This document shows, piece by piece, positions 802 through 31,064 of a stretch of 44,615 nt of DNA (position 1 is its first letter; every line of letters starts with the position of its first letter). Position numbers and translations under genes: made by a program. Under the pieces are notes generated by a model that saw only the letters and a list, made by a program, of their open reading frames with translations, was not told the DNA's origin and ran no database searches. This stretch comes from Promethearchaeota archaeon (GTDB lineage Archaea > Asgardarchaeota > Lokiarchaeia > Sigyniarchaeales > SOKP01), in contig JABCSY010000023.1 in NCBI GenBank assembly GCA_018238625.1, forward strand, positions 1 through 44,615. Reading direction: 5' to 3'.

Positions 802-821
802 TCTAATTTTTTCTTTATAAA
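802..821 (+). promoter_or_regulatory. TATA box with T-tract upstream, leaderless promoter of the 843-2681 operon
   Basis: TCTAATTTTTTC-TTTATAAA; TATA starts 29 nt before ATG 843. Confidence 0.6.
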
Positions 822-842
822 TTCTCATTATACTTTGAATTT

Positions 843-1604
843 ATGTTGGACTTATTTTTTTGGCTGTTCTTTATGCTAATCGTTTCCATCACAGTTCAAT
901 CTTGGTATAGACGCGCTCACACCCCAGGCTTTAAAACTTTTCTGCACGTTTTAGCCTTTGTTGGAGTATTTGTTCACGAAGTGGCTCATTACGCCCTCAA
1001 TGTTTTATTTGGCGTCAAAACCGGCAAATTAAAAGTTAAGTACCGTAGCCAAAACAAAGGGAGGGTCGCTCCCCACGGTTCGGTCGGTTTACCTGAGTTC
1101 GAGCGAAACTCCTTCCTACAGACATTTGTTGGCAGCGTAGCCCCATTGCTCGTATCAACCTTCCTTTTTCTCTTTTGCTTAGACGTTATTTTCAACTTAA
1201 AAACTGAGGCGTGGGTGGATGTAGTTGCCACCGTTTTCTGCGTGTCGCTTTTTATCGGTTCCGAACCTTCAGCGCAAGACATGAGATTAATCGGCATAAG
1301 TTTTAGAAAGGACACGAGCTACTCGCTTTACCAAATAGCTTTAGTCGTCGCGTCAGGGCTCGTGGTCTGGCTTTTCGTAGACCTTTATTTTATATACTTA
1401 CCGTTCGAAGTTCTATATTACATAGAATACTTCCTTTTCGTAATATTGATCTATTTCGTTTTGAAAACTACCTTTTGGATTATCAGTAGTTGTTTCAGCG
1501 CTTTAAAGAGGTCTAACCTTCCAAGTATAAAGTTATTGACTCGAAAAAGAAGGTTTAAAATGTTTACTCCAAGAAAATTGCACGAAAAAGAGGCGCAATG
1601 GTAA
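843..1604 (+). CDS. Membrane zinc metalloprotease-like protein (M50B/zincin-type)
   Basis: HEVAH (HExxH) in a hydrophobic context, later AP and PSxxD motifs, several TM segments. Confidence 0.75.
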   Translation: MLDLFFWLFFMLIVSITVQSWYRRAHTPGFKTFLHVLAFVGVFVHEVAHYALNVLFGVKTGKLKVKYRSQNKGRVAPHGSVGLPEFERNSFLQTFVGSVAPLLVSTFLFLFCLDVIFNLKTEAWVDVVATVFCVSLFIGSEPSAQDMRLIGISFRKDTSYSLYQIALVVASGLVVWLFVDLYFIYLPFEVLYYIEYFLFVILIYFVLKTTFWIISSCFSALKRSNLPSIKLLTRKRRFKMFTPRKLHEKEAQW

Positions 1605-1605
1605 A

Positions 1606-1950
1606 GTGAAAGGCTTCTGTCTAGTCGCGGTGGTAGTCGCAATGTTGATGTTTTACCAAAGAGAACCAGTTTATACCTTATTAATTATCGGCGTAGGGTT
1701 GTTCTTCTATTTGTTATATAAAGCGAAAAAGAGTGGCAACGGTCTACTAGGGACTTTTATGAGCGGAAATCAGACTTCGCAAGATAGAAGATTCGACGAT
1801 TTAATGGCGTTAATTATGCTCCAACAGCTACTCTCTAACAATTCTCAAGGCTCAAGCGCTTCGAGAGAAATATCCGAGGAGAGTCAGAAGCGTCGAGAAG
1901 AGATCGACAAAATTCAGAATGAAGTTTTAGACTTACTGGATAGCGATTAA
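1606..1950 (+). CDS. Small membrane protein (2 N-terminal TM helices, charged helical C-terminus)
   Basis: GTG start 1 nt after the upstream stop; hydrophobic N-terminus; operon context. Confidence 0.75.
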   Translation: MKGFCLVAVVVAMLMFYQREPVYTLLIIGVGLFFYLLYKAKKSGNGLLGTFMSGNQTSQDRRFDDLMALIMLQQLLSNNSQGSSASREISEESQKRREEIDKIQNEVLDLLDSD

Positions 1951-1970
1951 TTTTTGGTTGTGATTAAAGA

Positions 1971-2681
1971 ATGATCGAGCTCGAAAGATCGGCAATTATT
2001 TCTCATGTTTTCGAATTAGCTAAGGATAATGGTCTTATATCCATCGCCGGCAAATCTGGTACGGGTAAAACTACCTTGGCTCTCCAGTTTATTAGTGTTC
2101 TTATGACGCTCGAAAAGTCTTACCGAGATCAAAGCGTTTGGATACAAGCAAGCGAACAATTCCCTAAAAAAAGGTTAAGATCGCTTTTTGAAAGTTATCC
2201 TGACAAAGTTGATTACGTTCTGAAAAACATTTTTGTTGCTCCAGGAATTAAACCTTTCTCTAACTACCAAGAACAATCGTCTTACTTTAGGCGATTGAAG
2301 ACTACTATTCTTCCGAATAACGTTAAATTTATCGTTATCGACAATATTTCCCATTATTTGCGCTATATAATCTCCTCTATCTCAGATTATAAAGAAAGGG
2401 GGGCTATTTTAGACGAGTTTTTCAGCGTACAGTTGTTTCCCTTGGTAATGCGATGCCTAAGGGAAAAGATAATTCTTATTTTGGTCCACGAGGTTTCGTT
2501 CGATCCTAGCTCGGGTAAGACAAAACCTTTTTATAGCAAGTTATACGATAGAATTGACTCGATAAACGTCAACCTCTCGAAGACCATGAATTCTGGTCTA
2601 AAACAGATGGAAATTAGTTCGAAAGGTATCTCTATGAAGTTTATATACAAAATTGAAGATTCTGGAATCATAAATTTGTAA
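1971..2681 (+). CDS. RadB-like / RecA-superfamily ATPase paralog (core domain only)
   Basis: Walker A AGKSGTGKT, WIQASEQFPKKRL, Walker B FIVIDN. No N-terminal HhH. Confidence 0.8.
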   Translation: MIELERSAIISHVFELAKDNGLISIAGKSGTGKTTLALQFISVLMTLEKSYRDQSVWIQASEQFPKKRLRSLFESYPDKVDYVLKNIFVAPGIKPFSNYQEQSSYFRRLKTTILPNNVKFIVIDNISHYLRYIISSISDYKERGAILDEFFSVQLFPLVMRCLREKIILILVHEVSFDPSSGKTKPFYSKLYDRIDSINVNLSKTMNSGLKQMEISSKGISMKFIYKIEDSGIINL

Positions 2682-2774
2682 TAATGGTTAGCGTTTCCGA
2701 TTATATAAAGGCAAAATTTTGTTATACCGATTTTCCTTTTCCTTTAAATACATTGGTTAAGAATATAACTTACG

Positions 2775-3152
2775 ATGAATACGTCAAATACCACCATCAC
2801 TAACGAAATAAAATGCTCGATCTGTCGCGCCGACATAAAAGATCGCCATAATGTCTATCAATCCAGCTTAAAACTTGGTATTATTTGTAACTTGTGTAAG
2901 CAACGCTTTTCAGACGAGGACATCGAGATGATTATAAACATATTCTTTGCGTTTGGGGAATTTTTTGGGGCACGCGATCGGTCCAACTTTTCTATTGAGG
3001 ATACTATCCTTGAATTTGCCAAAAATTTAGATGAAGGAAAGGTGAATTTTCATTCGCAAAACGTTAGAATGTGGCATAAAGTGTTAACTCATGGTATTAC
3101 GCCAAAAGAGTTTTTAAAGGAATTATCGGCTTTTTCTGAGCAAGAACTGTGA
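2775..3152 (+). CDS. C2-C2 zinc-finger hypothetical protein (paralog of 30681-31064)
   Basis: CSIC...CNLC, FSDEDIEMI, FAFGEFFG and HGITPK motifs are matched in the second copy. TATA at 2743-2750. Confidence 0.8.
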   Translation: MNTSNTTITNEIKCSICRADIKDRHNVYQSSLKLGIICNLCKQRFSDEDIEMIINIFFAFGEFFGARDRSNFSIEDTILEFAKNLDEGKVNFHSQNVRMWHKVLTHGITPKEFLKELSAFSEQEL

Positions 3153-3356
3153 ACGATTAGTAATTTAAGAAATTAATACATTAATATTGAAAGAATTCTA
3201 AACTTAGCTCTTCGTTTTTGTAATTTCTTTTAAAAGTGTTATTATTATCCGTTTTTCTATACCATTGATACAAACAAGCGATTTTTAAATTAATTCTTTA
3301 AAGATTATTTTTTATGTTACGAGTATATACACATAGTTAGAAGATCGATTTATCTT

Positions 3357-3482
3357 ATGAAAAAATTAGCAGAAAAACTCAAAAAAGTAGACTTGGAACT
3401 ATCTAAATGGACTAGGGAAGTTCTGTTTGAGCATTTAGTGGAAGTTTGCCAAGATATTGAACATCAAGGGAAATTTAAATGA
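3357..3482 (+). CDS. Putative 41-aa small protein (not in the ORF track)
   Basis: MKKLAEKLKKVDLELSKWTREVLFEHLVEVCQDIEHQGKFK*; protein-like amphipathic composition in an otherwise AT-rich spacer. Confidence 0.5.
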   Translation: MKKLAEKLKKVDLELSKWTREVLFEHLVEVCQDIEHQGKFK

Positions 3483-3571
3483 GTCAAACGCCATTTTAAT
3501 TTTCCAATTCCAATTTCGTTTAAAGAGTTATAATTTTTAATCCAATTTTTTTGCATTTGGAAGTGTTAATA

Positions 3572-3592
3572 CCATATTTTTTTCTTTATTAA
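3572..3592 (+). promoter_or_regulatory. radA promoter: T-tract + TATA; a TCCAA...TTGGA inverted repeat lies just upstream (3541-3561)
   Basis: CCATATTTTTTTC-TTTATTAA; RBS-like GGAGTTGA at 3631-3638. Confidence 0.5.
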
Positions 3593-3647
3593 TAATCGTT
3601 TCTAATCTGATTTAATTCAAATTACAACATGGAGTTGATATTAAAAA

Positions 3648-4883
3648 ACGTCAGATTTAGACCAAATAAAAGGAATCAACGCTCGAATGATAAAGCTCTT
3701 GCAAGAGAGCGGCATTAGCACGGCAGAAGCTTTAGCGATGTCCCCGCACAACATTATTTCGGATATAGATGGGTTAGGCGATAAGACCGCAAAGAAGCTC
3801 ATTTGGAACGCTCGAAACGCTTTGGGCATGACAGAATTCATAACTGCAGATGACATCGACGAAAATACCGAATACATTACCACAGGCTCTTCTGAATTGA
3901 ACAGAATTTTAGGAGGGGGGTTTCAAACTGGCAAACTTACAGAAGTTTACGGGCCCTTTAAATCCGGCAAAACTAACTTAGCTCACACGATCGCCGTAAC
4001 CATCCAGCTTCCTAAAAAAAAGGGAGGTTTAGGTTCGACCGTAGCCTACATCGACACAGAAAACACTTTTTCTAAGGAGAAAATCAAAAGAATAGCTAAG
4101 AGGTTCGGGTTCGATCCTAAGAAAGTATTATCGCAAATTTACCACGCCAGGATTTATTCGTCCGACCATCAAATACAGATGATTCAAAAAGCAGAAACGC
4201 TTTGCAAAACCCGAAACGTGCGTCTAATCGTAGTAGATAGCTTAATGGCTTTACTAAGAGCGGAATACGTAGGTATTGGTATGCTCGCCCGTCGGCAAGC
4301 CGTCCTAAACAACATGATACACGGGCTTTCGCGAGTCGCGGAGACTTATAATTGCGCGATTCTTCTGACCAATCAAGTTTCGGTTAGCATGAAAGGAATG
4401 TTCTCGGCAAACGACGCCATTGGCGGAAATATAGTAGCCCATGGCTGCCACTTCCGAGTTATGTTCAAAACGAAGGGATTCTCATCGAACAATTCGCTGA
4501 AACGTAGAGCGATAATAGTGGACGCGCCAGATCTGCCACCTGAGGAAGCAGAATTCTTTATCACAAGCGTGGGAATTGCCGATACGGAAAAGGGAGACAT
4601 TCCCGAAGTTCAAGGCTTAGATTTCGAGGTCGAAACATTGTACGAAGAAGAGAGTAGCGTCGAAGATAGCGAAGTTTTCGATAATGGTAACGGTAAACAT
4701 TCGCTCATCGACGTTAAGGGAATTGGAGCCGGCACCGCAAAGAATCTAATAAAAGTTGGAGTAAGCTCTGTAGAAGGGTTGGTGAGTTCCGACCCCGAAC
4801 AGGTGGCCTCTAAGATTAGTGGAGTTTCTTCTAAGATGGTCCTTGAATGGCAAACCAACGCAAAAGCTCTTTTGAGCGCTTAA
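3648..4883 (+). CDS. radA: RadA/Rad51-family recombinase with N-terminal HhH domain and an extra C-terminal HhH domain
   Basis: ITTGSSELNRILGGG, TEVYGPFKSGKT, YIDTENTF, LIVVDS, LRAEYVGIGMLARRQ, TNQV, GGNIVAH. HhH homology (SDLDQIKGI) extends upstream of ATG 3687 to an in-frame ACG at 3648. Confidence 0.93.
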   Translation, partial: TSDLDQIKGINARMIKLLQESGISTAEALAMSPHNIISDIDGLGDKTAKKLIWNARNALGMTEFITADDIDENTEYITTGSSELNRILGGGFQTGKLTEVYGPFKSGKTNLAHTIAVTIQLPKKKGGLGSTVAYIDTENTFSKEKIKRIAKRFGFDPKKVLSQIYHARIYSSDHQIQMIQKAETLCKTRNVRLIVVDSLMALLRAEYVGIGMLARRQAVLNNMIHGLSRVAETYNCAILLTNQVSVSMKGMFSANDAIGGNIVAHGCHFRVMFKTKGFSSNNSLKRRAIIVDAPDLPPEEAEFFITSVGIADTEKGDIPEVQGLDFEVETLYEEESSVEDSEVFDNGNGKHSLIDVKGIGAGTAKNLIKVGVSSVEGLVSSDPEQVASKISGVSSKMVLEWQTNAKALLSA

Positions 4884-5034: not shown

Positions 5035-6006
5035 ATGACAAGAAGAAATGCGTTTTTAATAAAAATTAGTATTTTACTCGTTTTTTCGGTCCTAACTTCA
5101 GGTATTCTCATAGTTGATCTTGAAAAAAACGAAGGATTTTCTGATAGCAGGTCTTATAATAACTACAATAATTTAGAAAATGCATATTTGAAATCCTTAA
5201 CAATTTCAGATAAGATTCATATAAACGGTAGTGCTGGTTGGGTTGCTTTTAGAAGTGCTGGATATTGTACGGGCGAAGGAACCCAAATCGACCCATATAT
5301 TATTGAAAATTTGGAAATAGATGCTAAATGGTTGGATAGTGGCATCTTTATCGAAAATTCGGATGCCTACTTTAAGATTGAAAATTGCATCGTTTTTAAT
5401 TCAGGTCATAATGAGTATGATGCGGGAATTAAATTGAAAAACATTCAAAATGCCCTAGTACGAAAAAACGATTGTCAACAGAATGGTATTGGTATTTATT
5501 TAATCAATAGCAATAACAACGCGATAATAGGCAACCTAGTCCACCACAGTTTATGGGAGGGAATATTCTTAGAGACCAGTGATAATAACGTGATTTCGCT
5601 AAACACAATGCACTTCAATAATTACGATGGTATATTATTACGGTATAGTAATTATAACAAAATTTGGGGAAATACGCTTTCTATTCAAGATAATATTGCG
5701 ATACAATTACATCGAAGTAATTATAACGCGATTGCAGGGAATATCCTACAGCGCAACTGGTGTGGTGGTATATTTTTAAGATGGAGCAATAAGAATATAA
5801 TAATAAGTAACATAGCAATACTAGCCGGAGGAGATTTCAGAGAAAGAGATTGCGAAGGTAACGTATATTTATTTAACATCGGAAGTTTACATCTTCTTCT
5901 TGTATTTCCTAGCCTTTTCATCTTAGCAATAGTTGTATACAAAAGTAAAAAACCAACTAAAAAAAACGAGGTTAAAGCATATGAGAAGAAAAGAAAAGGA
6001 AGTTAA
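5035..6006 (+). CDS. NosD/CASH parallel beta-helix surface protein with N-terminal signal and C-terminal TM
   Basis: IHING...CTGEGTQIDPYIIENLEID, repeated GIxLxxSxxNxIxxN. Confidence 0.88.
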   Translation: MTRRNAFLIKISILLVFSVLTSGILIVDLEKNEGFSDSRSYNNYNNLENAYLKSLTISDKIHINGSAGWVAFRSAGYCTGEGTQIDPYIIENLEIDAKWLDSGIFIENSDAYFKIENCIVFNSGHNEYDAGIKLKNIQNALVRKNDCQQNGIGIYLINSNNNAIIGNLVHHSLWEGIFLETSDNNVISLNTMHFNNYDGILLRYSNYNKIWGNTLSIQDNIAIQLHRSNYNAIAGNILQRNWCGGIFLRWSNKNIIISNIAILAGGDFRERDCEGNVYLFNIGSLHLLLVFPSLFILAIVVYKSKKPTKKNEVKAYEKKRKGS

Positions 6007-6122: not shown

Positions 6123-7157
6123 TTAGTTTCTTAAAGATACAGAGCTCTTTTTCTTGCGAACGCTTCCTATAACGACCAAAGCGCCAACCACGAGCCCCGC
6201 GCTGACGACAAATCCGAGAGTCCATTCGATCGGCACGTAAAAATATCCTTGAATAGTTCCGTTAGTTGGTTCTGGGTCTGGCTCGGTTCCGTTTATACCG
6301 GTACTTATCGAATAATCTTCTGCTATTGCGTAAGCTACGTTTACTACGTCGACCTTGCAATAAATCTTGATTTTGACGGTGTAAACCCCGCTAACTGCGG
6401 TCCCGAAATTAAAGTGCAAAACCTCTCCAACGCTTTTCATGGTCTGGTTAGCGTATATCGTAAATTCAATATCGTCAGGATCTGTTAGATAGTAATACAC
6501 TTCGACTTCTCGGCTAATTAGTTCCCCTCCAATAGCAGAAACTCTTCCGACGTAAAACTTGTAAGATACGTCGGTTTTAAGCATAACGTTGTGTTCTACA
6601 ACCGATCCGGAGAGAAACTTGTTGACTTGGTACAACTCTAGTTTGGCGATGTATTCGGGCGACATGATGTCGTACAGGCACTTTTCATCCCTATCGAAAA
6701 AGATTTTAACGTATAAGTTTAAGTTCAGCTCGGCAATAACCGAAAAAATAAAAGTATAATTCCCCGAAATCGCCGTTCCGAACGGTATTTCGAACCACTG
6801 GTCGCCTTGCGATATGTTTACTTCGGTTTTGAATATTTCATAAACGTCTGAGTCGGGATCCACTATCGTAACGTTGATCTCGCAATCGTGTGGCGTTACG
6901 ATTTCTACTAACACGTAATAATTGAGCTCTTCGTATAAGTATAGGTCTTCGAACTGCTGAATGTCGTTCGGAGCGAGAAAAGTGAACACCTTGTCCACGA
7001 ATAACTCTTCAGAACTCGCGCTAGGTAGTTCTGCAAGTGCTAATCCGATGTTATCGTTGCCATTCATGTTAATTCGACTTTTATTAGCTAATAACCCAAT
7101 AGTTAATCCTGATACGACCAAAAAACCAAAAAAAATCGCTTTTGTGTGCGACTTAAT
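6123..7157 (-). CDS. Secreted, membrane-anchored protein with two beta-sandwich repeats
   Basis: Internal repeat (DPDSDVY..PFGTAISGNYT / DPDDIEF..NFGTAVSGVYT), C-terminal TM + RKKK. Likely start is ATT 7157 behind a perfect GGAGGTG (ORF track: TTG 7121). Confidence 0.8.
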   Translation of the reverse strand: MKSHTKAIFFGFLVVSGLTIGLLANKSRINMNGNDNIGLALAELPSASSEELFVDKVFTFLAPNDIQQFEDLYLYEELNYYVLVEIVTPHDCEINVTIVDPDSDVYEIFKTEVNISQGDQWFEIPFGTAISGNYTFIFSVIAELNLNLYVKIFFDRDEKCLYDIMSPEYIAKLELYQVNKFLSGSVVEHNVMLKTDVSYKFYVGRVSAIGGELISREVEVYYYLTDPDDIEFTIYANQTMKSVGEVLHFNFGTAVSGVYTVKIKIYCKVDVVNVAYAIAEDYSISTGINGTEPDPEPTNGTIQGYFYVPIEWTLGFVVSAGLVVGALVVIGSVRKKKSSVSLRN

Positions 7158-7488
7158 AGCCGTACACCTCCAATTCTTTGAACTCCAAGATTAATTCCTT
7201 AACGACGGGACACCTGTCAAAATCAATGCATGTAAAACACGGCTGGTCACTCCAGAAATACGCTTTTTGGTCAGCCCTTTCGACAATAAGTAGTGGGAAC
7301 TTGCTTTTTGGACATTCCAGAGCCGAATTGCTTATTTTACCTCTTTTAGGCAACGCGTACGAGAGTCCGCACACATCGCACTTAACGAACCGTTTGTAAT
7401 TATTCGTCTTAAAAACGATTAGAGAGCATTCGCAACTTGGACAGGTGCCTATCTCTTCTAGTTTTTTCAATTTGAAACGCCTTAACAA
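7153..7488 (-). CDS. Stand-alone topoisomerase-IA-type C4 zinc-ribbon protein (YrdD-like)
   Basis: IGTCPSCECSL...RFVKCDVC...YALPKRGKI...CPKS; extra CFTC..C. Confidence 0.75.
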   Translation of the reverse strand: MLRRFKLKKLEEIGTCPSCECSLIVFKTNNYKRFVKCDVCGLSYALPKRGKISNSALECPKSKFPLLIVERADQKAYFWSDQPCFTCIDFDRCPVVKELILEFKELEVYGY

Positions 7489-7702
7489 ATTTTTAATTAA
7501 ATTTACGCTTTTTCATATTTAAACAAAAAATAAATTTCCGACAAAAAATCAGAAATTAAAGTAAGACGTTTCTTTTAAATGGAAAAGTCTTCTTATTATA
7601 ACTCGCCTTAACAAAGTTTTTTCGAGATTGGTTAGAATTAAAAATCCTAACCTTTCTTTTTTTTAAGTTTTGTAAGTAATTAGTTTCAAGTAGGGGGATA
7701 AA

Positions 7703-8435: not shown

Positions 8436-8455
8436 TCCTAATTTTTCTTTAAATA
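8436..8455 (+). promoter_or_regulatory. T-tract + TATA leaderless promoter
   Basis: TCCTAATTTTTC-TTTAAATA, 32 nt before ATG 8480, in a divergent intergenic region. Confidence 0.6.
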
Positions 8456-8777: not shown

Positions 8778-9146
8778 TTAATGATATCCTATTGGAGGTC
8801 TATCTCCCCCCATAAGAAAACCCCAAAGAATAAAAGAAGTACCTGTAAGAAAGGCTCCAATCCATAAAAGTAGAACGCTTGTTATGAATCCACCTATACT
8901 TATCTTTTTCAAAAATATCTTTAAAATGTTTATGATAAAGCCTGCACTTCCTAACATCAGGCATAGATTGCCGATATTATTGAATATATACTTGAAGGTT
9001 GTACCCGTCTGATATTGAAGGTTCGAACCAAAAAAAGGAACGTAAATCGCTATAAACACTAAAATTCCTAGAAAAGCTAAAAACACTTTATTTGGGCTTC
9101 TTCTTTTCTGATGGTAAATTACTATCCCGTTTCCTTTATTTTTCAA
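8778..9146 (-). CDS. Three-TM hypothetical membrane protein
   Basis: TTG start behind GGAGTGA; three hydrophobic segments. Confidence 0.75.
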   Translation of the reverse strand: MKNKGNGIVIYHQKRRSPNKVFLAFLGILVFIAIYVPFFGSNLQYQTGTTFKYIFNNIGNLCLMLGSAGFIINILKIFLKKISIGGFITSVLLLWIGAFLTGTSFILWGFLMGGDRPPIGYH

Positions 9147-9291
9147 TCTATTAAATCACTCCTACTTTTTCGTTTTAATTTTGATAATACTTTGTTTGTT
9201 TATAAACAAAAATTTCGAAAGCGTTTTTTTCATTTATATAAAACTATATTATTTTAGTTCTAACAACTTCGAAATAAGAGGTTAAAACAAC

Positions 9292-9405: not shown

Positions 9406-9458
9406 ACTTTTAACCCATCTTTTTTTTTCTTTATTAAACTAAGAGATTTTCAGCTTTT

Positions 9459-10553
9459 ATGGGAGTTAAGTTAAAAGAGCTCATTGTTCGAAATAAAATA
9501 GAGTTTTCCGAGTTAGCGGGTAAAATTATGGCAATAGACGCCCCGAACATTATTATGAGCCTGTTTAACTTCGCCCGAAAAAACCCAGACGGCTCTCGTG
9601 CTGGGCTAATCCTCGATCGAACCCAAAGACCAATATCTCACCTTTATGGTCTGTTGTACAGAATTAACTTTTACTACTCCAAGAAGATTTTCCCGATTTT
9701 TTGCTTCGACGGGCTCGACTCAGAGCTCAAGAAGTTAAAAACTAAAGACCGACTTAACGACTTTATTTTCACGCAAAATTTGTATCGATCGATGATTCGT
9801 TCCGGGAACAGGGAAAGCGCAAAAGAAATCGCGATGTCCAGAGAATATCTATGGCCTAATATAATCAATGAATCGAAACAGCTCTTAGGAGCTTTAGGAA
9901 TACCTTGCATAAGTTCCCCCGCTTCGGCAGAATCTCAATGCGCTCAACTTGTCAAAGATAGGGTCGCCCATTATTCCAACTCCCAAGATTTTGATTCACT
10001 TCTCTTCGGATGTCCACACCAAATTCAAAATTTTTCGAAATCGCTGAGACGAAAAGTACAAGGAAGGTGGAAGTACGAAAAGGTCGTACCCGTGGTAATC
10101 GACTTGAAATACAATTTAAAGCGATTAGGGATAGACCAGTTCCAGCTCGTCGACATGGGAATTCTTATTGGAAACGATTATTTTTCGGGGATCAGCAAAA
10201 TTGGTCCTAAACACGCTTATAAGTTCGTAAAAATTCACAAGAATTTGGAAAACGCAATCTACCAAGAAAAAAATAATTACGATTTCTCTCCTCTTACTCA
10301 AGAACTAATCGCGAAAGTTAGAAAAATATTTTTGCTTCCCGAAGTCATCACTCAGTACCCTAGTTTAAATTGGAGCTTTCCCAACGAGCAGCAATCTTTT
10401 TCTTTATTGTGCGAAGAACACTATTTAAATAGGGAGAGGGTACAAAACAATTTAGCCAAGCTACTTGCGAATTTCGACAAGTGCCGAGACTACTTTGAAA
10501 AGCAGAAAGCAAGCCCACAAATCGTGCAAAAAACTTTAGACCAACTATCGTAG
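9459..10553 (+). CDS. fen: FEN1/XPG-family 5' nuclease, divergent paralog
   Basis: MGVKL, AIDAPN, SHLYGL, FDG, SQDFDSLLFG, GNDY..GI..IGPK; degenerate PIP box QKTLDQLS. Confidence 0.9.
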   Translation: MGVKLKELIVRNKIEFSELAGKIMAIDAPNIIMSLFNFARKNPDGSRAGLILDRTQRPISHLYGLLYRINFYYSKKIFPIFCFDGLDSELKKLKTKDRLNDFIFTQNLYRSMIRSGNRESAKEIAMSREYLWPNIINESKQLLGALGIPCISSPASAESQCAQLVKDRVAHYSNSQDFDSLLFGCPHQIQNFSKSLRRKVQGRWKYEKVVPVVIDLKYNLKRLGIDQFQLVDMGILIGNDYFSGISKIGPKHAYKFVKIHKNLENAIYQEKNNYDFSPLTQELIAKVRKIFLLPEVITQYPSLNWSFPNEQQSFSLLCEEHYLNRERVQNNLAKLLANFDKCRDYFEKQKASPQIVQKTLDQLS

Positions 10554-11130: not shown

Positions 11131-11253
11131 AAATAAATATTACTAATTTTAAGCCCTAATTTTTCTTATTTTTTCTTTTTCTTTATATACAAGCAACGGT
11201 TTAAGCATTTAATTTTTTTTAATGATTTTAAAGTCTACGACATTGAATAAATA

Positions 11254-11859
11254 ATGGCTGGAAATACGAGCGAATCGGTATTTTTGGTGAAAAATTTAGA
11301 TGTACTAAGCGAATTATCTAAGCGTTTTTTAGCTAAAAAAAGAGTATTAGATCACTTTTTTAGGTGCGAGAGCCTAACAAACGGCGATAACAGCGTTATT
11401 GAGCTAAGTCACTTCCTCGTCAAAAATATTGCGAAACAGACGCATGTGCCTGAAATTCTCGTTTTAGACGTCATAAGCAAATTTCTAAAAGAAGTTAAAG
11501 CTTTTAACGAAATGTTACGTTCTGGTTACATCGCGTGGACTCCCGAGAGAAAGCGTCTTTATCGAAAAGTAAGAGTGTACCTTCACAAGGCTCATAAAAT
11601 CGCCCCCGTATTCGATTATCAGAGAGCAAAAAAGAATTTAGAGCTTCTACACGTCTTGCTAAGTCGCAAATTTTTTTGGCCTCACGTTCCAACTCAGCTT
11701 GCCCTGGTTATCTTTGTAACAGATCGTAACGATCCAAATTTAACCAACAACAATTATATACTCCAAAAAAATTTAAGAAGTCTGTGCTCTTGTTCCGCCT
11801 ACGCCTTCCACATGGCTCGAAATAAGTTGAAGATAAATAAATCCGGAAATCTAAAGTGA
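11254..11859 (+). CDS. Hypothetical protein, possibly a divergent TFB/TFIIB-like cyclin-fold factor lacking the Zn ribbon
   Basis: C-terminal PTQLALVIFVT...ILQKNLRSLCSCSAYAFHMARNKL resembles the TFB second-repeat pattern PxxxAAAxxYxA...TQxExAxxxxVTExTIRxRxKEL. The CDS is solid; the family call is moderate. Confidence 0.5.
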   Translation: MAGNTSESVFLVKNLDVLSELSKRFLAKKRVLDHFFRCESLTNGDNSVIELSHFLVKNIAKQTHVPEILVLDVISKFLKEVKAFNEMLRSGYIAWTPERKRLYRKVRVYLHKAHKIAPVFDYQRAKKNLELLHVLLSRKFFWPHVPTQLALVIFVTDRNDPNLTNNNYILQKNLRSLCSCSAYAFHMARNKLKINKSGNLK

Positions 11860-15376: not shown

Positions 15377-15421
15377 ATTATTTTCTCCAAATTAATAAAA
15401 TTTGATTATGTTGATTTAATT

Positions 15422-21578: not shown

Positions 21579-21714
21579 ATAATTATCAAATTATTCTTTT
21601 CTTTTAAGAAATTCATCTAAAACTTGATTTTAATTTTTTTATTTAAATAATTAAAACTTTAATTTGAATTTATACTAAATTGTATAATTAGTTAAAGTAG
21701 GAATAAGTAGGAAA

Positions 21715-22644
21715 ATGAGCGATTCAGTAGAAGAGTTGTACCAAAAATTGCTAGCTTCTGGCTTCACGGAGGTTGAATTGGAAAAGCAGGTCAAGAACAA
21801 AGCCAAAGAGTTCGGTGGATTCATGTCGGAGCAAGGTATTTTGTTCGTTATCGCTAAAGAAAATGGGATTTATCTTCAATCGTCCGATATTAATGAGCAA
21901 TTGTATAAAGAGTTTGAAGAAGAGATTGACTACGACGATTTCACGATCGATATATCAGAAATTAAAGAGGATATGACCATCATTGTGTTATTAGGAAAAA
22001 TACTCCAAGTTTATGAGACACGCGAATTTACAAGAAAGGACGGGACTCCGGGTATCGTTGGCTCATTTCTATTAGGAGATATTTCGCAGACGATAAAAGT
22101 TATTTTATGGGACGATAAAGTTAATATTACAAAAAATGAATTCTTCAGAAAAAACGAATTAATTCGTATAATTGGAGGATATTGTAGAATGGGTAGAGAT
22201 AGCAACCTCGAAGTACATTTAGGAAAAAAAGGTAGAATCGTACTTTCTCCTCAAAACGTAAGTAAAAATGCAGAGAGGAAATTAAATAATCTTGAATACG
22301 ATCAAAACCAAATTGATTCACCGCAGAAACTTACATCTAAAATTAAGGATTTAATAGAGCGATATAAGTACATAAAAATAATCCAAGGCTTAATTCAGAT
22401 CGAAGAATTTAAAGAAGTTAACACAAAATCAGGTGAAAAAACGTTTTTACTTAAGGTAATACTTAGCGACGAATCTAAGGAAATTCGAGTAATAATTTGG
22501 GGAATGAACGCTATTGAATGTTTAAAAGTACTAAGCAACGGAGATTTCGTCGAGATTACGAATCTCGCTGTTAAACAAAATACCTACACAGATGAAAAAG
22601 AATTATTATTTACCAAACACTCTGTTTTTAGAATAGTTTATTAA
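21715..22644 (+). CDS. Replication protein A-like ssDNA-binding protein (two OB folds)
   Basis: EFTRKDGTPGIVGSFLLGD..IKVILWD; second OB fold LSDESKEIRVIIWG; N-terminal FGGFMSEQGILFVIAKENG domain. Confidence 0.88.
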   Translation: MSDSVEELYQKLLASGFTEVELEKQVKNKAKEFGGFMSEQGILFVIAKENGIYLQSSDINEQLYKEFEEEIDYDDFTIDISEIKEDMTIIVLLGKILQVYETREFTRKDGTPGIVGSFLLGDISQTIKVILWDDKVNITKNEFFRKNELIRIIGGYCRMGRDSNLEVHLGKKGRIVLSPQNVSKNAERKLNNLEYDQNQIDSPQKLTSKIKDLIERYKYIKIIQGLIQIEEFKEVNTKSGEKTFLLKVILSDESKEIRVIIWGMNAIECLKVLSNGDFVEITNLAVKQNTYTDEKELLFTKHSVFRIVY

Positions 22645-23211: not shown

Positions 23212-23581
23212 GTTATCCTAATTAAAACTCTTTAATTTTCTTAAATACGCCTTTTTTATAAAAAATAATACAAATCTAGACATAAAAGTTTTAATATTTA
23301 AATCTTTTCTAAATACTTAACCCGTTTTATATTTTTTCCATGCTGATTAATGAAAAAAGCATATACAGAAATTTTTATAGTTGGTTTTCCTTTTTGTCCT
23401 ATGAATTGAAGGAAAAGATTTTTCATCTAAATAATCTCATATATAATAGATTCTTCTTTTCAAGATTAGAGGAGAGGAGCTTAGTTAATTATTAACGAAT
23501 TAAACATTGTAGAAATCTTTTTTTATTTATATATTCAAGATTAGTTTTATCGAATAGATATTTTTTATTCAAATTAACAGG

Positions 23582-24271
23582 TTGGATAGCGTGATAACCG
23601 AGCAAAAATTAAAGTCTAATGTAGATTTCGGGTTAATAGCAAAAAAAAGTTCGGAAGAGCGAGTTTTAGAACTCTTAAATAAATTATTGTTGTACGGAAG
23701 CTTTTTTTACGTGTTTTGCCTTTCTACTAGCATAATAACTGCTTATTTTTTCGGTTATAGCATTTTCACCCACTACATCAGCGACCTCGGTCGCAAAGCC
23801 GTGTTTCCTTTTTCGTGGTCGCACGACGCTTTTTGCGTGTTTGCAGGTTTAATAAGCGTTCCGGTAACCTTTAGTTTTAACAAAAAGCTAAAGGTTCGGT
23901 ACAAAAACTCGAAGCATTCTTTATTATTTTCGAAAATTGGGTTAGTTTCAGGCGTTGCTGGCAACCTCGGGTTAGTTTTCGTAGGAATTTTTAGCTTGGA
24001 TCGAGCTGGGCCTGGACAAATATACCACGGAATTTCTGCTTTTTTCGCTTTTAGCGGCATAGCAGTTTCCATTTTCTTTTTCTCGCTAAACATAGTTTTA
24101 TCTCACGAGTGCAATTTGAAAAAGTTGGGCGCCTATGGTCTGGTAGTTCCGCTAGTTTTACTCTTTTTATATTGCGTCGTCGTGACACCTATATTAGAAT
24201 GGCTTTTTTACTACTCAATTATAGCTTTTCTCTTAGCTCTGGATTGTTACGTGTTCAAAAACACGCATTGA
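23582..24271 (+). CDS. DUF998-like multi-TM membrane protein
   Basis: YSIFTHYISDLG, VGIFS, HGISAFFAF, PILEW motifs. Confidence 0.75.
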   Translation: MDSVITEQKLKSNVDFGLIAKKSSEERVLELLNKLLLYGSFFYVFCLSTSIITAYFFGYSIFTHYISDLGRKAVFPFSWSHDAFCVFAGLISVPVTFSFNKKLKVRYKNSKHSLLFSKIGLVSGVAGNLGLVFVGIFSLDRAGPGQIYHGISAFFAFSGIAVSIFFFSLNIVLSHECNLKKLGAYGLVVPLVLLFLYCVVVTPILEWLFYYSIIAFLLALDCYVFKNTH

Positions 24272-27066: not shown

Positions 27067-27176
27067 ATTTCAGAATAATCTCTTTTTTTTTTGAAAAAAG
27101 CTCGATTTATGGATTAGGGTTCAGTAATAAAATTTAGTCTTCCCATAATACAATTGAAAATAACTAAGAAATATTA

Positions 27177-27196
27177 TCCAATTTTTCCTTTATATT
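27177..27196 (+). promoter_or_regulatory. T-tract + TATA promoter of the mglB-mglA-like operon
   Basis: TCCAATTTTTCC-TTTATATT; RBS AGGTG before ATG 27247. Confidence 0.55.
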
Positions 27197-27246
27197 GTCA
27201 TAGACTATTTCTTTTCTATCAATAAATAATTAGGTGTTAGAAGAAA

Positions 27247-27780
27247 ATGACTTTATTTGTTCCTAGAGCTTTATATGAAAACGAAATAACTATCGTTTTG
27301 GACGAAATTCGATATAGTTACGGAATGTTGACCAGAAGAGGATACATTTATGGGCTTATTGCGATAGATCAAGATGCAAAAATAATCGCGATCGACTCTA
27401 GATTTGATCGCAAGTTGAATTATTGGGATTTGAGCTCGATCGGCGCTGCACTATTTGGAGTGGCTCGACAAGCTCAAGACTTTTTTGAAACAGATTCATT
27501 AATAAGAGCTACACTAATTTATAAAGATTTACAACTTTATGTTAAATCAATTGGAGATGTAATGCTTCAAAAGAAAGGGAAACGAGAAATCCTCGTTGTT
27601 TTGTTGGTCGATAACATGGTAAATATTGGCGTACTTATATTGCAAATGAGGAAATTCTCGCAAAAAATCAAAGAGGCTATAACTAAAAATCAAACTATTA
27701 TGACCAAACTTCAAATGGGCGAACGTGAGCTAAAAGAATACCTTAGAAAATTAAAAAAGAAAGTATTTCAATCCGCTTAA
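27247..27780 (+). CDS. Roadblock/MglB-like protein with C-terminal helical extension
   Basis: IAIDQDAKIIA, LSSIGAALFGVARQ, VNIGVLILQMRK; directly upstream of an MglA-like GTPase. Confidence 0.8.
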   Translation: MTLFVPRALYENEITIVLDEIRYSYGMLTRRGYIYGLIAIDQDAKIIAIDSRFDRKLNYWDLSSIGAALFGVARQAQDFFETDSLIRATLIYKDLQLYVKSIGDVMLQKKGKREILVVLLVDNMVNIGVLILQMRKFSQKIKEAITKNQTIMTKLQMGERELKEYLRKLKKKVFQSA

Positions 27781-27806
27781 TTATCGAAAAAGGTGTAGCG
27801 CGAAAA

Positions 27807-28460
27807 ATGATTGTAGATTCTGATAAAGATGAAAAAAGAAAAGTAGAAATCAATAGTGAATCGGGTTTTAACGCGTTAAAAGAGGTGCTTCAATTTAAAG
27901 TCGTATATTGGGGTCCTGGCGAATCGGGAAAGACCACTAATTACTTTAGACTGCGAGAAAAGTTTGACGCCGTCAAGTTAAATAAGGGTTATTCCATAGA
28001 AACGACCGATGGTAGAACTTTGTGGCAAGATTCAATTCGACTTTCGTTTTATTTCAATCTTAAAGAGGTCAAATTCAACATAATTACGCAAATTGTTACT
28101 GCAACAGGACAAGAACGTTTTTTATCTACGCGAGAGTACGTATTAGATGGAGCCGACGGCGTAGTGTTCGTAGCTGATTCCGACCCCGAAAAAATGGAAC
28201 AAAATAAGCGAAGTTTTCGAGAATTAAGCAGTTTTACTCACGATAAAGGCATTCCTTATGTAATACAACTAAACAAGAGAGATTTGGAGAACGCGATTTC
28301 CCTAGAGGCCTTTAAAGTAGAGCTCGGGCTCCCCCAATCTGAAGAGTTCAATGATGGAGCGCCAGTAGTTTATCCAACTGTGGCTTTAAAAGGAGATAGC
28401 GTTCGGAGATGTTTTGAAGACTTGATGCTCCAAATAATTTTCAATTATTTTAGTAATTAA
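27807..28460 (+). CDS. MglA-family small GTPase
   Basis: KVVYWGPGESGKTTN, GRTLWQD, TATGQ, GADGVVFVADS, QLNKRDL. Confidence 0.9.
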   Translation: MIVDSDKDEKRKVEINSESGFNALKEVLQFKVVYWGPGESGKTTNYFRLREKFDAVKLNKGYSIETTDGRTLWQDSIRLSFYFNLKEVKFNIITQIVTATGQERFLSTREYVLDGADGVVFVADSDPEKMEQNKRSFRELSSFTHDKGIPYVIQLNKRDLENAISLEAFKVELGLPQSEEFNDGAPVVYPTVALKGDSVRRCFEDLMLQIIFNYFSN

Positions 28461-28491
28461 ATTCAACAATTTTAGGAGAATTAGACGAATT

Positions 28492-29646
28492 ATGGATACT
28501 CTATACGATTTCCAGAAACCAGAATTTCTAAACATTTTATTCTTTCAGCAAAAAAACTTGGTGATCTTTCCTTACGTCGATCTAAAACACATCCATTCGC
28601 TAGATTGTTTTACTGTAGGATACGAAGTAGTTGATTTGGATTCGACCGTGTTACATAACCTTCGCGAAATTATTGATTTTGAAGCTAGTAATACTTATTC
28701 TCAGCAACCTACTTTTTATTATATATTGAATGCCAAGGTAGAAGATATTAAAGTTTTATTAGAATCTCCTAACATCCATTGTGTAATCAATACGCACGAG
28801 AACGTAGAGTATTTAGCAAACGGCGATAATTTTATTTTTTATAATAAAAAGAACAATTCCTTTCTCAATTACGAGCCAGAAAGAGCGAACTTGTCTTTTG
28901 AGCAACATCTAATCCAAACTTCTCAAAACGAACAAATATTATCAGACGAAATCCTTAAAATTAAAAGCGTAGCAACAAAAATCTTCGTAAATTTGAATAA
29001 CCGAAATAACGCGGATAATCTTCCCAAACTTATGAGCGATTACGATCAGATTTATTGGGACAAGATTTTAACTTTTACTAAGTTATATTTTAAGATCGAT
29101 ATACCCAAATTCGAAAGACCAAGAAAAATACTCAAAAAAAAGTTTTCTAAATCGCAAAAGGATTTTTCTTTCGAATACGAGTTCATTTTGAAAACTAATC
29201 GAAGGATCGGACAAAAATTTATCCAATTAATTCACAATTATCGTTTTGACAAAGTAAACCCCGCTAATTTAGAGGTGGAACAGCTTTACTACCCTAAAAA
29301 ACTGTACAATTATTTACGAAACCACCACTGGGAAAAAGGAATTCCCCCTGAATTCGTGTCTAATTGGGTTAAAATGATCGATACTAAACTTCAAACGAAT
29401 GAAAACGATCTTTTAGATTTTCAAATTATTTTCGATAAGTTAAATATCCCACACGCTTATTTACCCGAAGTTAACGAAGAAAACAAACCTCATAAAAAGA
29501 TCCTGCATCAACCGATTAATCCTACAGTAACCACTAAGAATGAGAGCGTAAATGATACTATCGTACCAATACCTTCAGTAGAAGACTTTCAAGAGTTTAA
29601 AAGTTGGCTTTTAAAAAAATTAGATGATTTGGAAAAAATCCTGTAG
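28492..29646 (+). CDS. Hypothetical protein, third gene of the MglB/MglA-like operon
   Basis: 384-aa ORF, GGAG RBS; no recognised motif. Confidence 0.8.
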   Translation: MDTLYDFQKPEFLNILFFQQKNLVIFPYVDLKHIHSLDCFTVGYEVVDLDSTVLHNLREIIDFEASNTYSQQPTFYYILNAKVEDIKVLLESPNIHCVINTHENVEYLANGDNFIFYNKKNNSFLNYEPERANLSFEQHLIQTSQNEQILSDEILKIKSVATKIFVNLNNRNNADNLPKLMSDYDQIYWDKILTFTKLYFKIDIPKFERPRKILKKKFSKSQKDFSFEYEFILKTNRRIGQKFIQLIHNYRFDKVNPANLEVEQLYYPKKLYNYLRNHHWEKGIPPEFVSNWVKMIDTKLQTNENDLLDFQIIFDKLNIPHAYLPEVNEENKPHKKILHQPINPTVTTKNESVNDTIVPIPSVEDFQEFKSWLLKKLDDLEKIL

Positions 29647-29690
29647 GTTCTAGTATTATTACATTTCTTTAAGTTTTTAATTTAGCAGAT

Positions 29691-29894
29691 CTAAGAGATA
29701 TGTAGACAAGAAAAACGCAGCGTTAACAAACATAATTCAATTATAAATTCAGGAATTTTGCCAAAATTGTGTCTAAATATACGATATTCAAGTACCCTCT
29801 GTGCACCTTTAGGCGTTATCATGCTCCGTTAAAATAACGGGTAATAGGTATATTTCTTATGAAATCCTTCTAAAAGGTTTTTCTTTCCTTTCAA
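29691..29894 (-). pseudogene. Possible degraded gene or two in-frame micro-ORFs
   Basis: RBS GGTGAG, TTG 29894 MKGKKNLLEGFHKKYTYYPLF*, then in-frame MITPKGAQRVLEY... to TAG 29691. Confidence 0.3.
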
Positions 29895-29995
29895 AGGTTA
29901 TCTCACCATTAATTTCTAACCCCATTAGTTATAAATTTACGATTCTTAATAAAAATTAGATTATGAATTGTCCTAATTTTGTCTAGAGACAAGCT

Positions 29996-30325
29996 ATGAA
30001 AAAAACAGTACAAAATATTTTAAAGTATATTGTTATCATTATATTAGTTTATATAGTTGTAGTAGTAAATAATTTACAAAAAATTCGTGGATTTTTAGAA
30101 TTATTTACTATATTTTTTGTTATGTTTGCATTTTTATTTTATTTTGTTGTTATGTTTTTACCCATATTTGTTTTTCGATATGTTCTTATTTCTGGATTAA
30201 ATATTTTCTTTGGTACCAAAATTTATTTTTCAATTAAACGACTCTTTTATATTGCTATAATATTATCAATATTTTTAACTAGTTTATCGTGCGCATTATT
30301 AGATTTTCAGTTATTGCTATTTTGA
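29996..30325 (+). CDS. Very AT-rich small membrane protein
   Basis: 109 aa, three hydrophobic segments. Confidence 0.55.
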   Translation: MKKTVQNILKYIVIIILVYIVVVVNNLQKIRGFLELFTIFFVMFAFLFYFVVMFLPIFVFRYVLISGLNIFFGTKIYFSIKRLFYIAIILSIFLTSLSCALLDFQLLLF

Positions 30326-30680
30326 TTAATCTTTTAGATGAATGATTTTACAATGTAAGGATTGATGAAGATAGAGATAGATATGCAGATAAAGAAATTT
30401 CCTATGAGAAAAAGGTTGACACATTCCGTTATGAGATTATTAATAACATAGAAGTTCTTCATTAGAAAATTTTCTAACTCCTCGAAATATTTAAAATATT
30501 TCTTTAAACTACAATCCTGTTGTAATTTATCTTTATCTACTCTTTTAAATATGTGATTATAAACTTTAGAGAGGGTTTTGGACAAAAAAGTAAAGATTTA
30601 AATATTTTTATATCTTGATTATTTATTGAAATTCTTTGTTTCAAATTTTTATTTAAATATGCAAGATTGATCTCAATTTT

Positions 30681-31064
30681 ATGATAACACCTGTTATAAG
30701 AGAGAAGAAAAAGCTTAGCTCTGTTAGATGCGTTCTATGTCAGAGTAACACCAATTCTAACTTCAAAATTAAAAAGATTGGAATGTCTTTTAGAATAGTT
30801 TGTGAAGATTGCTTAAAATCGTTTTCTGACGAAGAAATGGAATTAATTCATAATATGTTTACTGCGTTTGGGGGGAATTTTGGATTATTAAGTGATTCCA
30901 AAGAAACCTCTTATTCGAAATTAAAAGAGATTGCAGAAGATTACAAAACTCTAAATAAGGACGTTGCTAATATTGAAAACGATGTTAAAACGCTCCATTT
31001 AGCCTTTTTATACGGGATTACTCCGAAGCAACTCGTACAAGGGTTAAACCTTTTGATTGACTAA
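30681..31064 (+). CDS. C2-C2 zinc-finger hypothetical protein (paralog of 2775-3152)
   Basis: CVLC...CEDC, FSDEEMELI, FTAFGGNFG, YGITPK; TATA 30652-30659. Confidence 0.8.
   Translation: MITPVIREKKKLSSVRCVLCQSNTNSNFKIKKIGMSFRIVCEDCLKSFSDEEMELIHNMFTAFGGNFGLLSDSKETSYSKLKEIAEDYKTLNKDVANIENDVKTLHLAFLYGITPKQLVQGLNLLID

Follow-up and report, generated by a model that had tools for sequence, protein, structure and literature searches.

A pyrimidine-run promoter class heads a conserved island of recombination genes in a Lokiarchaeia archaeon, with a linked divergent TFB paralogue as candidate reader

We analysed a 44,615-nucleotide stretch of DNA (the window) from a Promethearchaeota archaeon of the Lokiarchaeia (GenBank assembly GCA_018238625.1, contig JABCSY010000023.1), in which thirteen TATA boxes are directly preceded by a run of T residues on the coding strand. 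Comparison with other promoters of the same genome and of its relatives makes it well supported that these T-run/TATA sites are a distinct promoter class and not the general promoter form. They are probably the core promoters of a dedicated regulon, and the candidate reader is TFB-X, a divergent paralogue of the general transcription factor TFB whose gene adjoins the motif-bearing genes. The promoter class and the regulon are well supported by the sequences; an alternative-factor mechanism is plausible and has a named candidate, and the competence role proposed in the initial annotation is unproven. The contig that carries the window (C73) is part of a 4.29-Mb metagenome-assembled genome (MAG; here G000) of 201 contigs, with 32% GC (68% A+T), a completeness of 97.9% and a contamination of 7.59%. 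G000 encodes TFB, TBP, Ras/Arf/Roc GTPases, longin, Gtr1/RagA, and SUFU and IFT52-GIFT domains, a repertoire in keeping with a Loki-type Asgard archaeon. The 20 sequencing runs listed as containing this DNA, from cold-seep and marine sediments, are all DNA runs, with no RNA run among them. Several of its contigs are homeologous to parts of the window, with 80-96% identity overall: C4 is ~80-85% identical to positions 151-4298, C6 is ~92% identical to 26653-32218, and C117 is 88% identical to 42595-44613. Because of these contigs and the contamination value, two related populations probably share the bin, and copy numbers in G000 are to be read with corresponding caution.

All thirteen T-run sites listed in the initial annotation are present at the positions and on the strands given there, and each consists of a T-run followed by a TTTAWWWW box. 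The four promoters that it offered as canonical counterparts (those of the esterase, Ras/Rab, flavodoxin-like and 42119 genes) also read as it described them. The composite consensus is approximately AAATTTTTYC-TTTAWATA, with the T-run joined directly to the TATA box (the underlying matrix is conditioned on the search expression), and the base before TATA is C or G in 52 of 60 instances. The T-run occupies the 6-8 bp that normally hold the purine-rich TFB recognition element (BRE), in a fixed register to TATA. Genome-wide, TTTAWAWA boxes peak at -29 to -32 from start codons. At six window units the TATA box ends 21-27 nt before the start codon, a spacing that by itself suggests leaderless starts. 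The strict form of the element, TTTTT[ACG]TTTAWAWA, occurs 67 times on the two strands of the genome, against 53 occurrences of a reversed-pattern control, and 8 of these are in the window, where 0.7 are expected per 44.6 kb. The island contigs C73, C4 and C6 hold 8, 1 and 1 strict copies and make up most of the genome-wide excess. Of 479 genomic copies of a looser form (T5+N1-2+TTTAWWWW), 15 lie in the window (5.0 expected), and none of the 305 genomic copies of its mirror image with A5 does. Intergenic TTTAWAWA boxes are preceded by TTTTT[ACG] at 8 of 45 sites in the window and at 39 of 3208 elsewhere (Fisher 1.5e-7), and no other stretch of the genome has more than three T-run boxes per 30 kb.

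Since the definition of the motif came from this window, counts within it are to some degree circular. Circularity was avoided by scanning the window with a position weight matrix (PWM) built from relatives only, and by scanning the relatives with a PWM built from the 13 window sites. With the relatives-only matrix, all 13 heads of island transcription units score at least 14, and none of the 29 other gene heads reaches 12 (maximum 7.6); 11 of these 13 heads were set by synteny, and two small open reading frames (ORFs) were assigned from the motif. With the window matrix at a score of at least 12, 49 of 60 island heads match in the loci of eight genus relatives, against 16 of 159 non-island heads (Fisher 3e-24, for kin that are not independent). 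The second promoter class claimed in the initial annotation is borne out in the rest of the genome as well. Motif scores are at most 9.9 at the genes for the nine canonical TFBs, the three TBPs, the two canonical RadA proteins, the housekeeping FEN1 and the RPA on contig C22, all of which lack a T-run. Among 118 TATA boxes at the leaderless position, AAA within -6..-1 is commoner (35 boxes); TTTTT[CG] or TTTTCC abuts the box in five, and in 1 of 111 once C73, C4 and C6 are set aside. Outside these three contigs the genome has 74 matches with a PWM score of at least 16, compared with 44-64 in four controls (T-block swapped, complemented, mirrored or reverse-complemented), which is near the null. 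An averaged base profile around all TATA boxes gave a flat A/T mixture that discriminated nothing, and the upstream regions of 12 tRNA genes (aragorn), taken as a canonical reference, were heterogeneous. The sites were also considered as canonical promoters for the opposite strand, a reading that was rejected because on that strand the T-run becomes GAAAAA and falls downstream of TATA.

In eight genus relatives, compared over 20-kb flanks around the FEN1 paralogue FEN1-2, it is exactly the genes with the motif that make up a syntenic island, which is found across one lokiarchaeial family. The marked gene set is co-conserved, as first proposed. From the left, the order is unk253, unk114 and a RadB-like gene; unk125; RadA2; unk332 and unk111 (minus strand); and unk122 (minus strand). 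To the right follow FEN1-2; unk201; RPA2; unk229; unk177, a small GTPase gene and unk384; and unk127. The island is compact in six relatives. In the window it is interrupted by motif-less genes, namely four NosD genes and LVIVD, esterase, longin, Ras, flavodoxin-like and unk163 genes. Every unit head keeps its T-run element in the relatives, down to 35-50% protein identity, and the internal operon genes (RadB-like, unk384 and unk332) do not have one. The pattern T4+[CGA]1-2 TTTAWWWW is retained at 60 of 74 orthologous promoters despite diverged flanks; several of the 14 that do not match are locus-edge artefacts. The right flank of the island (GNAT, DUF1028, HisPhos and Frag1 genes) and the gene order are common to relatives G014, G016 and G020. 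Two genes were followed further. Apart from G000, 24 genus genomes were searched for proteins of the FEN1-2 type, and 14 gave matches at E 1e-130 or better; a T-run with TATA stands ~29 nt before the ATG in 15 of 15 orthologues (L001-L015; 57-100% identity), whose flanks differ. The housekeeping FEN1 copies have a purine-rich GGAAAAAATATA-type upstream region, a long leader and no T-run. At unk201, the T-run lies directly before TATA in all 30 of the orthologue loci listed, which come from several genera.

In all nine loci examined, a protein of 409-429 aa that we call TFB-X is encoded between a gene for a toroid-domain protein and unk253. In this assembly the gene lies outside the window, at C4:13488-14777; by synteny its place is just beyond the window's left end. 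Alignment with seven canonical G000 TFBs (hhalign) gives a probability of 97.9% and an E-value of 4e-13 over 261 columns (7-293 of 307) and spans the zinc ribbon, the linker and both cyclin repeats, to which TFB-X adds ~140 C-terminal residues. The ribbon cysteines (C24, C27, C41 and C44) and a helix of the form MSTI..QV are invariant in all nine sequences. The C-terminal helix-turn-helix of TFB/TFIIB reads the BRE. The MSTI..QV helix aligns with this helix-turn-helix of the canonical TFBs and differs at most positions from the VTEVTLRSRYKEL-type helix that five of the seven carry. A PF00382 search of the genome returned 18 matches in nine genes, none of them on C4, and so missed TFB-X; the homologue in G076, a genome of another genus, scores 18 bits with NF001658 (cut-off 384) and E 4e-4 with Pfam Zn_Ribbon_TF, below the cut-off. 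Judged by these comparisons, TFB-X is a divergent, and not a typical, member of the TFB/TFIIB family.

G000 encodes nine canonical TFBs and three TBPs (on C116, C175 and C60). Pairwise identity among the TBPs is only 49-50%, and a long acidic tail extends the N-terminus of one of them. Within the family, 97 of 134 genomes, which are MAGs and incomplete, yielded TFB-X, and they represent 12 of 13 genera. A sister family gave one weak match in 14 genomes, and a further 251 genomes from a 400-genome sample of the phylum gave none. The promoter of the TFB-X gene has no T-run, as one would expect if TFB-X were an externally controlled master switch. Upstream of the gene, five loci of the same genus (L035, L040, L038, L036 and L107) share a conserved (C/G)TGGTGATCT-like element, which in L040 lies just downstream of a TATA-like box and may be an input site controlling the switch. 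G076 has two further copies of TFB-X (C9:389355-390575 and C6:684077-685264), with strict motif matches a few kb to ~14 kb away (C9:388279, 393747, 400566 and 403663; C6:679551 and 681722). This hints at several TFB-X-linked loci per genome.

The explanation that we favour is that the T-run takes the BRE position and that the element, heading every transcription unit of the island, would be read by the island's own divergent full-length TFB paralogue. In TFB-X, the helix aligned with the BRE-reading helix is rewired. Acting with one of the three TBPs, TFB-X would bring RNA polymerase to T-run promoters only. Expressed from a promoter of a different kind, TFB-X would switch on the whole island, much like a sigma factor, and the island genes would then be co-expressed. 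The initial annotation had compared the gene set with regulons under an alternative initiation factor. A divergent TFB beside the island in nine of nine loci is a credible reader of this kind, and its genomic linkage and altered recognition-helix region lead us to infer that it may bind the T-run.

Several observations weigh against this explanation. The canonical BRE of G000 is itself weakly defined: AAA occurs within -6..-1 at 35 of the 118 leaderless-position boxes, compared with 609 of 4265 (14%) in coding DNA. The distributions of TFB-X and unk201 do not fully coincide: 67 family genomes have both, 11 have only unk201, 30 have only TFB-X and 26 have neither. In the 11 (of 78 unk201-positive genomes) no TFB-X was seen at E 1e-20, and four of them, searched again at E 1e-3, gave canonical-TFB-like matches only (G139, G151, G075 and G062, with completeness of 99%, 95%, 79% and 83%). 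G139 and G151 still have the T-run before unk201, and either TFB-X is unassembled there or another factor reads the motif. From the 30 genomes that have TFB-X without unk201 it follows that the content of the island varies. Whole-genome motif totals do not cleanly separate genomes with and without TFB-X: among the matches listed, real and control totals are 84/24, 27/26, 35/26, 47/27 and 62/32 where TFB-X is present and 28/17, 29/24, 33/26, 32/20 and 45/42 where it is absent, and only the clumping of matches differs. Finally, TFB-X is found here on C4, the ~80%-identical homeologous copy from a mixed bin, and not on C73 itself.

The genes of the island are, as far as their sequence models indicate, divergent second copies of recombination and repair proteins together with membrane proteins. 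They are described here from left to right, on the plus strand unless stated otherwise. The first promoter (802..821; PWM 20.4), whose TATA lies 21 nt before the ATG, is retained on C4 of G000 and in G020, G002, G007, G014 and G018. It heads an operon (843..2681; supported by synteny) of unk253 (843-1604), a 253-aa multi-pass membrane protein with an HExxH motif, unk114 (1606-1950), a 114-aa membrane protein, and a RadB/KaiC-like P-loop ATPase (1971-2681) that scores 38.8 bits with the RadB model (cut-off 172.4). The promoter of unk125 (2731..2750; PWM 18.6) is a TTTTCC variant, and TTTTCC-TTTAAATA is retained before this gene in eight of nine copies, the ninth (G015) having TTTTTC. The gene (2775..3152) encodes a CxxC...CxxC zinc-ribbon and four-helix protein, a paralogue of unk127. 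The model of unk125 has a mean confidence (pLDDT) of 84.9; for it Foldseek found nothing in the PDB at E 1e-3 or better, and the best VIA-align Z was 4.2.

The next promoter (3573..3592; PWM 16.1; retained in five of seven relatives' loci) belongs to RadA2 (3687..4883), a RadA paralogue with a Rad51 core and an additional C-terminal helix-hairpin-helix (HhH) at residues 340-388. RadA2 falls below the TIGR02236 cut-off (286.5 versus 361.15 bits) and lies above that of NF003301 (323.4 versus 259). The housekeeping RadA proteins on C58 and C63 (433.7 and 429.3 with TIGR02236) pass both models. The RadA2 frame is open 5' of the annotated ATG at 3687, where positions 3593-3700 encode HhH-like sequence, but this upstream stretch offers none of the start codons ATG, GTG and TTG in frame. 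There is an ATG at ~3629, just before an A6 run, that is out of frame by one base, a layout that recurs on C4 and in G020. The RadA2 start may be non-canonical, or there may be a shift at the A-run.

On the minus strand, a promoter at 7516..7535 (PWM 19.5) heads an operon defined by synteny (6123..7488), with unk111 (7153-7488), a double zinc ribbon with a weak likeness to topoisomerase I zinc fingers, and unk332 (6123-7121), a beta-rich protein with a C-terminal membrane anchor. A plus-strand promoter at 8436..8455 (PWM 18.1) stands 24 nt before a 74-aa two-helix membrane ORF (8480-8704), which was assigned from the motif alone. The small membrane protein unk122 (8778..9146, minus strand) has its promoter at 9199..9218 (PWM 16.6), back to back with a plus-strand promoter at 9221..9240 (PWM 14.5) that precedes a 37-aa hydrophobic ORF (9292-9405), again assigned from the motif. 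The promoter of FEN1-2 (9418..9437) is 21 nt before the ATG of the gene (9459..10553). This FEN1/XPG-family paralogue scores 258.3 bits with TIGR03674 (cut-off 352), and the housekeeping FEN1 on C138, ~36-38% identical to it, is present throughout the relatives searched.

In the right part of the island, the promoter at 11170..11189 (PWM 20.1) serves unk201 (11254..11859), a helical protein with a predicted cyclin fold at residues ~94-201. The promoter at 21630..21649 (PWM 15.3) serves RPA2 (21715..22644), an RPA-like OB-fold paralogue for single-stranded DNA binding (95 bits, cut-off 362) that exists besides the 571-aa RPA on C22. The multi-pass membrane protein unk229 (23582..24271), whose homologue in G095 has DUF998, is preceded by a promoter at 23514..23533 (PWM 14.6). 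A promoter retained in ten of ten copies (27177..27196; PWM 16.3) heads the operon 27247..29646 of unk177 (27247-27780), an Arf/Ras-like small GTPase (27807-28460) and unk384 (28492-29646). The GTPase is the only one of the three with a Pfam match, and 'MglB/MglA-like' is a label from the initial annotation. The last promoter (30640..30659; PWM 14.2), 21 nt before the ATG, belongs to unk127 (30681..31064), the zinc-ribbon paralogue of unk125.

Some of the DNA between these units may have a history of its own. Two sequences, unk113 and the C-terminal part of unk159 (17239-17580 and 21099-21578), are 80-83% identical and flank a 3.2-kb LVIVD-repeat gene in a region of 47% GC within the 32%-GC genome; the appearance is that of DNA inserted into the island with one flank duplicated. 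NosD/beta-helix genes, four paralogues in all, are dispersed over 5035-6006, 14279-17104 and 25339-27066. They have relatives on C4, carry no T-run motif and are missing from the six compact islands. Just beyond unk127, a 117-aa ORF (31137-31490) matches only the C-terminal part of S-adenosylmethionine-dependent methyltransferase models and is probably a gene fragment; C6 is rearranged at this point.

Further genes appear under the motif elsewhere. The islands of other genera add a Hef-like helicase (558 bits, cut-off 610), a Hel308-like helicase (404, cut-off 887), an HhH protein of 605-666 aa, a protein of 1270-1314 aa and a protein of ~900-980 aa with a prenyltransferase-type toroid domain. 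Homologues of several of these extra genes lie behind motif matches on C4 and C156 of G000, and a 400-aa protein (C156:69954-71156) keeps the motif in G002, G007 and G095. Of 44 promoter-position matches in G000 with a PWM score of at least 15, 28 are on seven contigs (C73, C4, C6, C7, C156, C67 and C91), and the regulon therefore has several loci. In G076, 10 of 105 strict matches lie within the 20 kb around its island, and in G014 12 of 27 matches lie on the 77-kb island contig. An operon on C67 (2102-14620) behind T-run/TATA matches encodes a TPR protein, a 1281-aa paralogue of the 1270-1314-aa island protein, a HerA/DUF87 ATPase and a 1745-aa protein. T-run promoters also form an array of a second kind outside the island, at L091 (G095:C1:1204000-1209000), where three near-identical back-to-back promoter modules, TGCATTTTTCTTTAAATAGG facing AAGTTTTTCCTTTAAA, recur every ~1-1.5 kb beside small zinc-finger and HEPN-domain genes.

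The T-run might instead be the operator of a separate regulator that overlaps the BRE position, with a canonical TFB initiating transcription, which we hold to be unlikely. The regulator would then be one of the zinc-ribbon proteins (unk125/unk127 or unk111) or the cyclin-fold protein unk201. The island does encode several such small zinc-ribbon proteins as well as unk201, each under the motif, and the motif persists in genomes where TFB-X was not found. The label 'TFB-like' that the initial annotation gave to unk201 (the 11254 gene) has support at the level of the fold and none from the sequence profile. In the predicted structure (pLDDT 80.8), the C-terminal cyclin fold is most like the first repeat of the TFIIB/TFB core: VIA-align ranks 5wh1_A first (Z 8.0, rmsd 2.8, 94 residues aligned), followed by 5iy6_M (7.8), 3k1f_M (7.8) and 8ity_V (7.6) and, further down, 1ais_B (P. 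woesei TFB, 6.8) and then cyclins, although values of Z under ~13 may reflect a common arrangement in helical folds. Foldseek found no match to unk201 in the PDB at E 1e-3 or better, Protein Atlas offered no usable lead (best score 0.86), and hhalign comparison with TFB gave a probability of 0.3%, with no Pfam or NCBIfam match. The gene is present in 78 of 134 family genomes and in none of 26 genomes of other families in the class. A predicted complex of unk201 with TBP scores 0.42, against 0.01 for the best control, and lends weak support to an interaction; the docking mark is reached by 58 of 80 solved complexes and by 2 of 110 mismatched pairs, and at 0.60 or below by 7 of 80, and the docking runs share at least 36% of contacts with a partner pLDDT of at least 77.

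Against an operator stands, first, G015. This genome is 100% complete and lacks unk201, with only ~90 nt between FEN1-2 and RPA2, yet its island promoters keep the motif, which removes unk201 as an obligatory motif reader. The zinc-ribbon proteins, moreover, have no recognisable DNA-binding fold, and an element that abuts TATA in one fixed register is what one expects of a core promoter more than of an operator. TFB-X, as a putative reader of such a core element, is the candidate that we carry forward.

What the regulon does is a separate question. The initial annotation took it for a competence or DNA uptake/exchange programme resembling that of ComX or TFB3 (ups/ced), a label that the genome does not sustain and that we regard as distinctly unlikely. 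It is true that the regulon brings together recombination proteins, a GTPase pair of the polarity type and six or more membrane proteins. A motif match (16.7) also heads the C67 operon with its HerA/FtsK-type ATPase, one of four DUF87 genes in G000 and the only one found behind the motif, but its likeness to CedD is negligible (23.6 bits, cut-off 600). A gene with a CoiA nuclease domain lies inside the island in the window and in G016, G020 and G014, but it is missing from five of the eight relatives' loci, and its promoter scores 5.1, outside the motif set, as the initial annotation itself conceded. ComEC (PF03772) has no match in the genome, which is 97.9% complete, DprA (PF02481) has a single match on C13 below the cut-off (20.5 versus 29.6 bits), and the island proteins include no pilin or secretion ATPase that could be recognised. 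The gene content fits a specialised DNA-transaction programme, and uptake or exchange is not thereby shown. As a best guess, the regulon serves a specialised form of recombination or repair that is coupled to the cell envelope. It is quite doubtful, though conceivable, that the family keeps a complete parallel recombination toolkit (RadA, RadB, RPA, FEN1/EXO1-like, Hef and Hel308 paralogues), wired to membrane proteins and a polarity GTPase, which a private TFB reading a pyrimidine BRE turns on or off as a single unit.

A mobile origin is very unlikely in our assessment. The island would then be an integrated or domesticated element of the '7H_42-like' kind, with its own TFB and promoter dialect and with recombination genes that serve the element. 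Asgard elements of this kind, as described in the available part of the source, are CRISPR-targeted contigs of 44-59 kb, some of them circular, with a primase-SF3 helicase, PCNA and HMG (Medvedeva et al. 2021, 10.1101/2021.07.29.453957), and they share with the island a TFB homologue, a Rad51-like recombinase, nucleases and many zinc-finger proteins. Compared with that description, the island has no primase-SF3 helicase, PCNA or HMG that we could find. FEN1-2, unk201 and TFB-X occur in 3-4 copies in G007, the island is missing from about a quarter to half of the family genomes, and a Mu-type transposase adjoins motif matches on C7, all of which would suit mobility. Among the island proteins, however, no integrase, capsid, terminase or replication initiator was found, and a PHROGs search of 20 of them gave generic RecA/ATPase matches only. 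A scan of IMG/VR with the TFB-X profile found none, and RadA2 recovered there a single gene with 38% identity, whose contig (50% GC) carries neither the motif nor a homologue of any other island gene. PADLOC was run on the same number of island proteins (20), and none of these searches suggests a virus or a known defence system. The divergence of the island tracks kinship across 12 of 13 genera, which fits long vertical inheritance. An old domesticated element is possible; the conserved order, the right flank shared by G014, G016 and G020, and the vertical-looking divergence argue for a resident chromosomal system.

It is barely credible that no specific factor reads the T-runs and that they act as terminators for upstream genes, exclude nucleosomes as poly(dT) tracts or are a side effect of AT-rich intergenic DNA: oligo-T is an archaeal termination signal, five of the sites lie downstream of a co-oriented gene and the genome is 68% A+T, but four sites (8436, 9218/9221, 21630 and 30640) lie between divergently oriented ORFs, as originally observed, the register to TATA is fixed with C or G before it in most instances, the window has no copy of the mirror A5 form, genes of these AT-rich loci that are not part of the island have no T-run, and the element is conserved even where the proteins have diverged to 35-50% identity.

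Regulons directed by alternative general factors are known from several systems, and the proposed TFB-X regulon resembles each of them in part. Streptococcal ComX is the alternative sigma factor of the competence regulon. By analogy, a single initiation factor would likewise be dedicated to the island and act through one kind of promoter box on genes among which recombination and single-stranded-DNA-binding functions are prominent; the island differs in that the factor would be a TFB rather than a sigma factor, no uptake apparatus was found in G000, and CoiA is outside the motif set. In haloarchaea, TFB and TBP have expanded, with partitioned regulons. G000 similarly has many general-factor paralogues (nine canonical TFBs, TFB-X and three TBPs), but TFB-X is far more divergent than the other copies and is tied to one island with a promoter variant. 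Sulfolobus TFB3 is involved in the UV response together with ups and ced, and its gene set includes DNA-exchange genes; it is truncated and lacks the DNA-binding core, whereas in TFB-X the zinc ribbon and both cyclin repeats are present, with ~140 residues more. Sulfolobus TFB2, which acts in the cell-division wave, is described in the accessible part of its source as using near-identical TATA boxes and similar BREs at different spacing (10.64898/2026.09.06.749720); in the island promoters, by contrast, the BRE position itself is a pyrimidine run. With both Sulfolobus factors the proposed system would share a TFB paralogue that directs RNA polymerase to a defined gene set. Unlike theirs, the TFB-X gene is physically linked to its putative target island.

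At the level of the promoter, the island sites share with the canonical BRE-TATA arrangement, which TBP and the TFB core read (as in the P. woesei complex), an 8-bp TTTAWATA whose distance from the start codon suits a leaderless or short-leader transcript, and an upstream element of 6-8 bp that adjoins it in fixed register. They differ in the element itself, which is purine-rich in canonical promoters and here reads TTTTTYC on the coding strand. Paralogous RadA proteins in one Asgard genome have been described, 'less robustly' for Lokiarchaea, and the second RadA clade of some Asgard archaea resembles the present case in its paralogous RadAs; the part of that paper available describes no island, motif or linked TFB (Matsuo et al. 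2025, PMC12722695). In the limited literature searched, we found no Asgard case described in which pyrimidines take the BRE position and a divergent TFB is linked to such promoters.

Alternative TFB paralogues are the archaeal counterpart of sigma factors, and few clear cases tie one of them to a recognisably different core-promoter element. Here the promoter variant, the target set and the candidate factor can all be read from sequence and are conserved across 12 of 13 genera of the family. The system is directly testable with TFB-X, TBP and a 40-bp promoter, and the motif is a clean marker for annotating the regulon in MAGs. A duplicate recombination machinery that is grouped with envelope proteins under such a promoter bears on DNA repair or exchange in Asgard archaea, and on whether specialised recombinase programmes predate eukaryotes.

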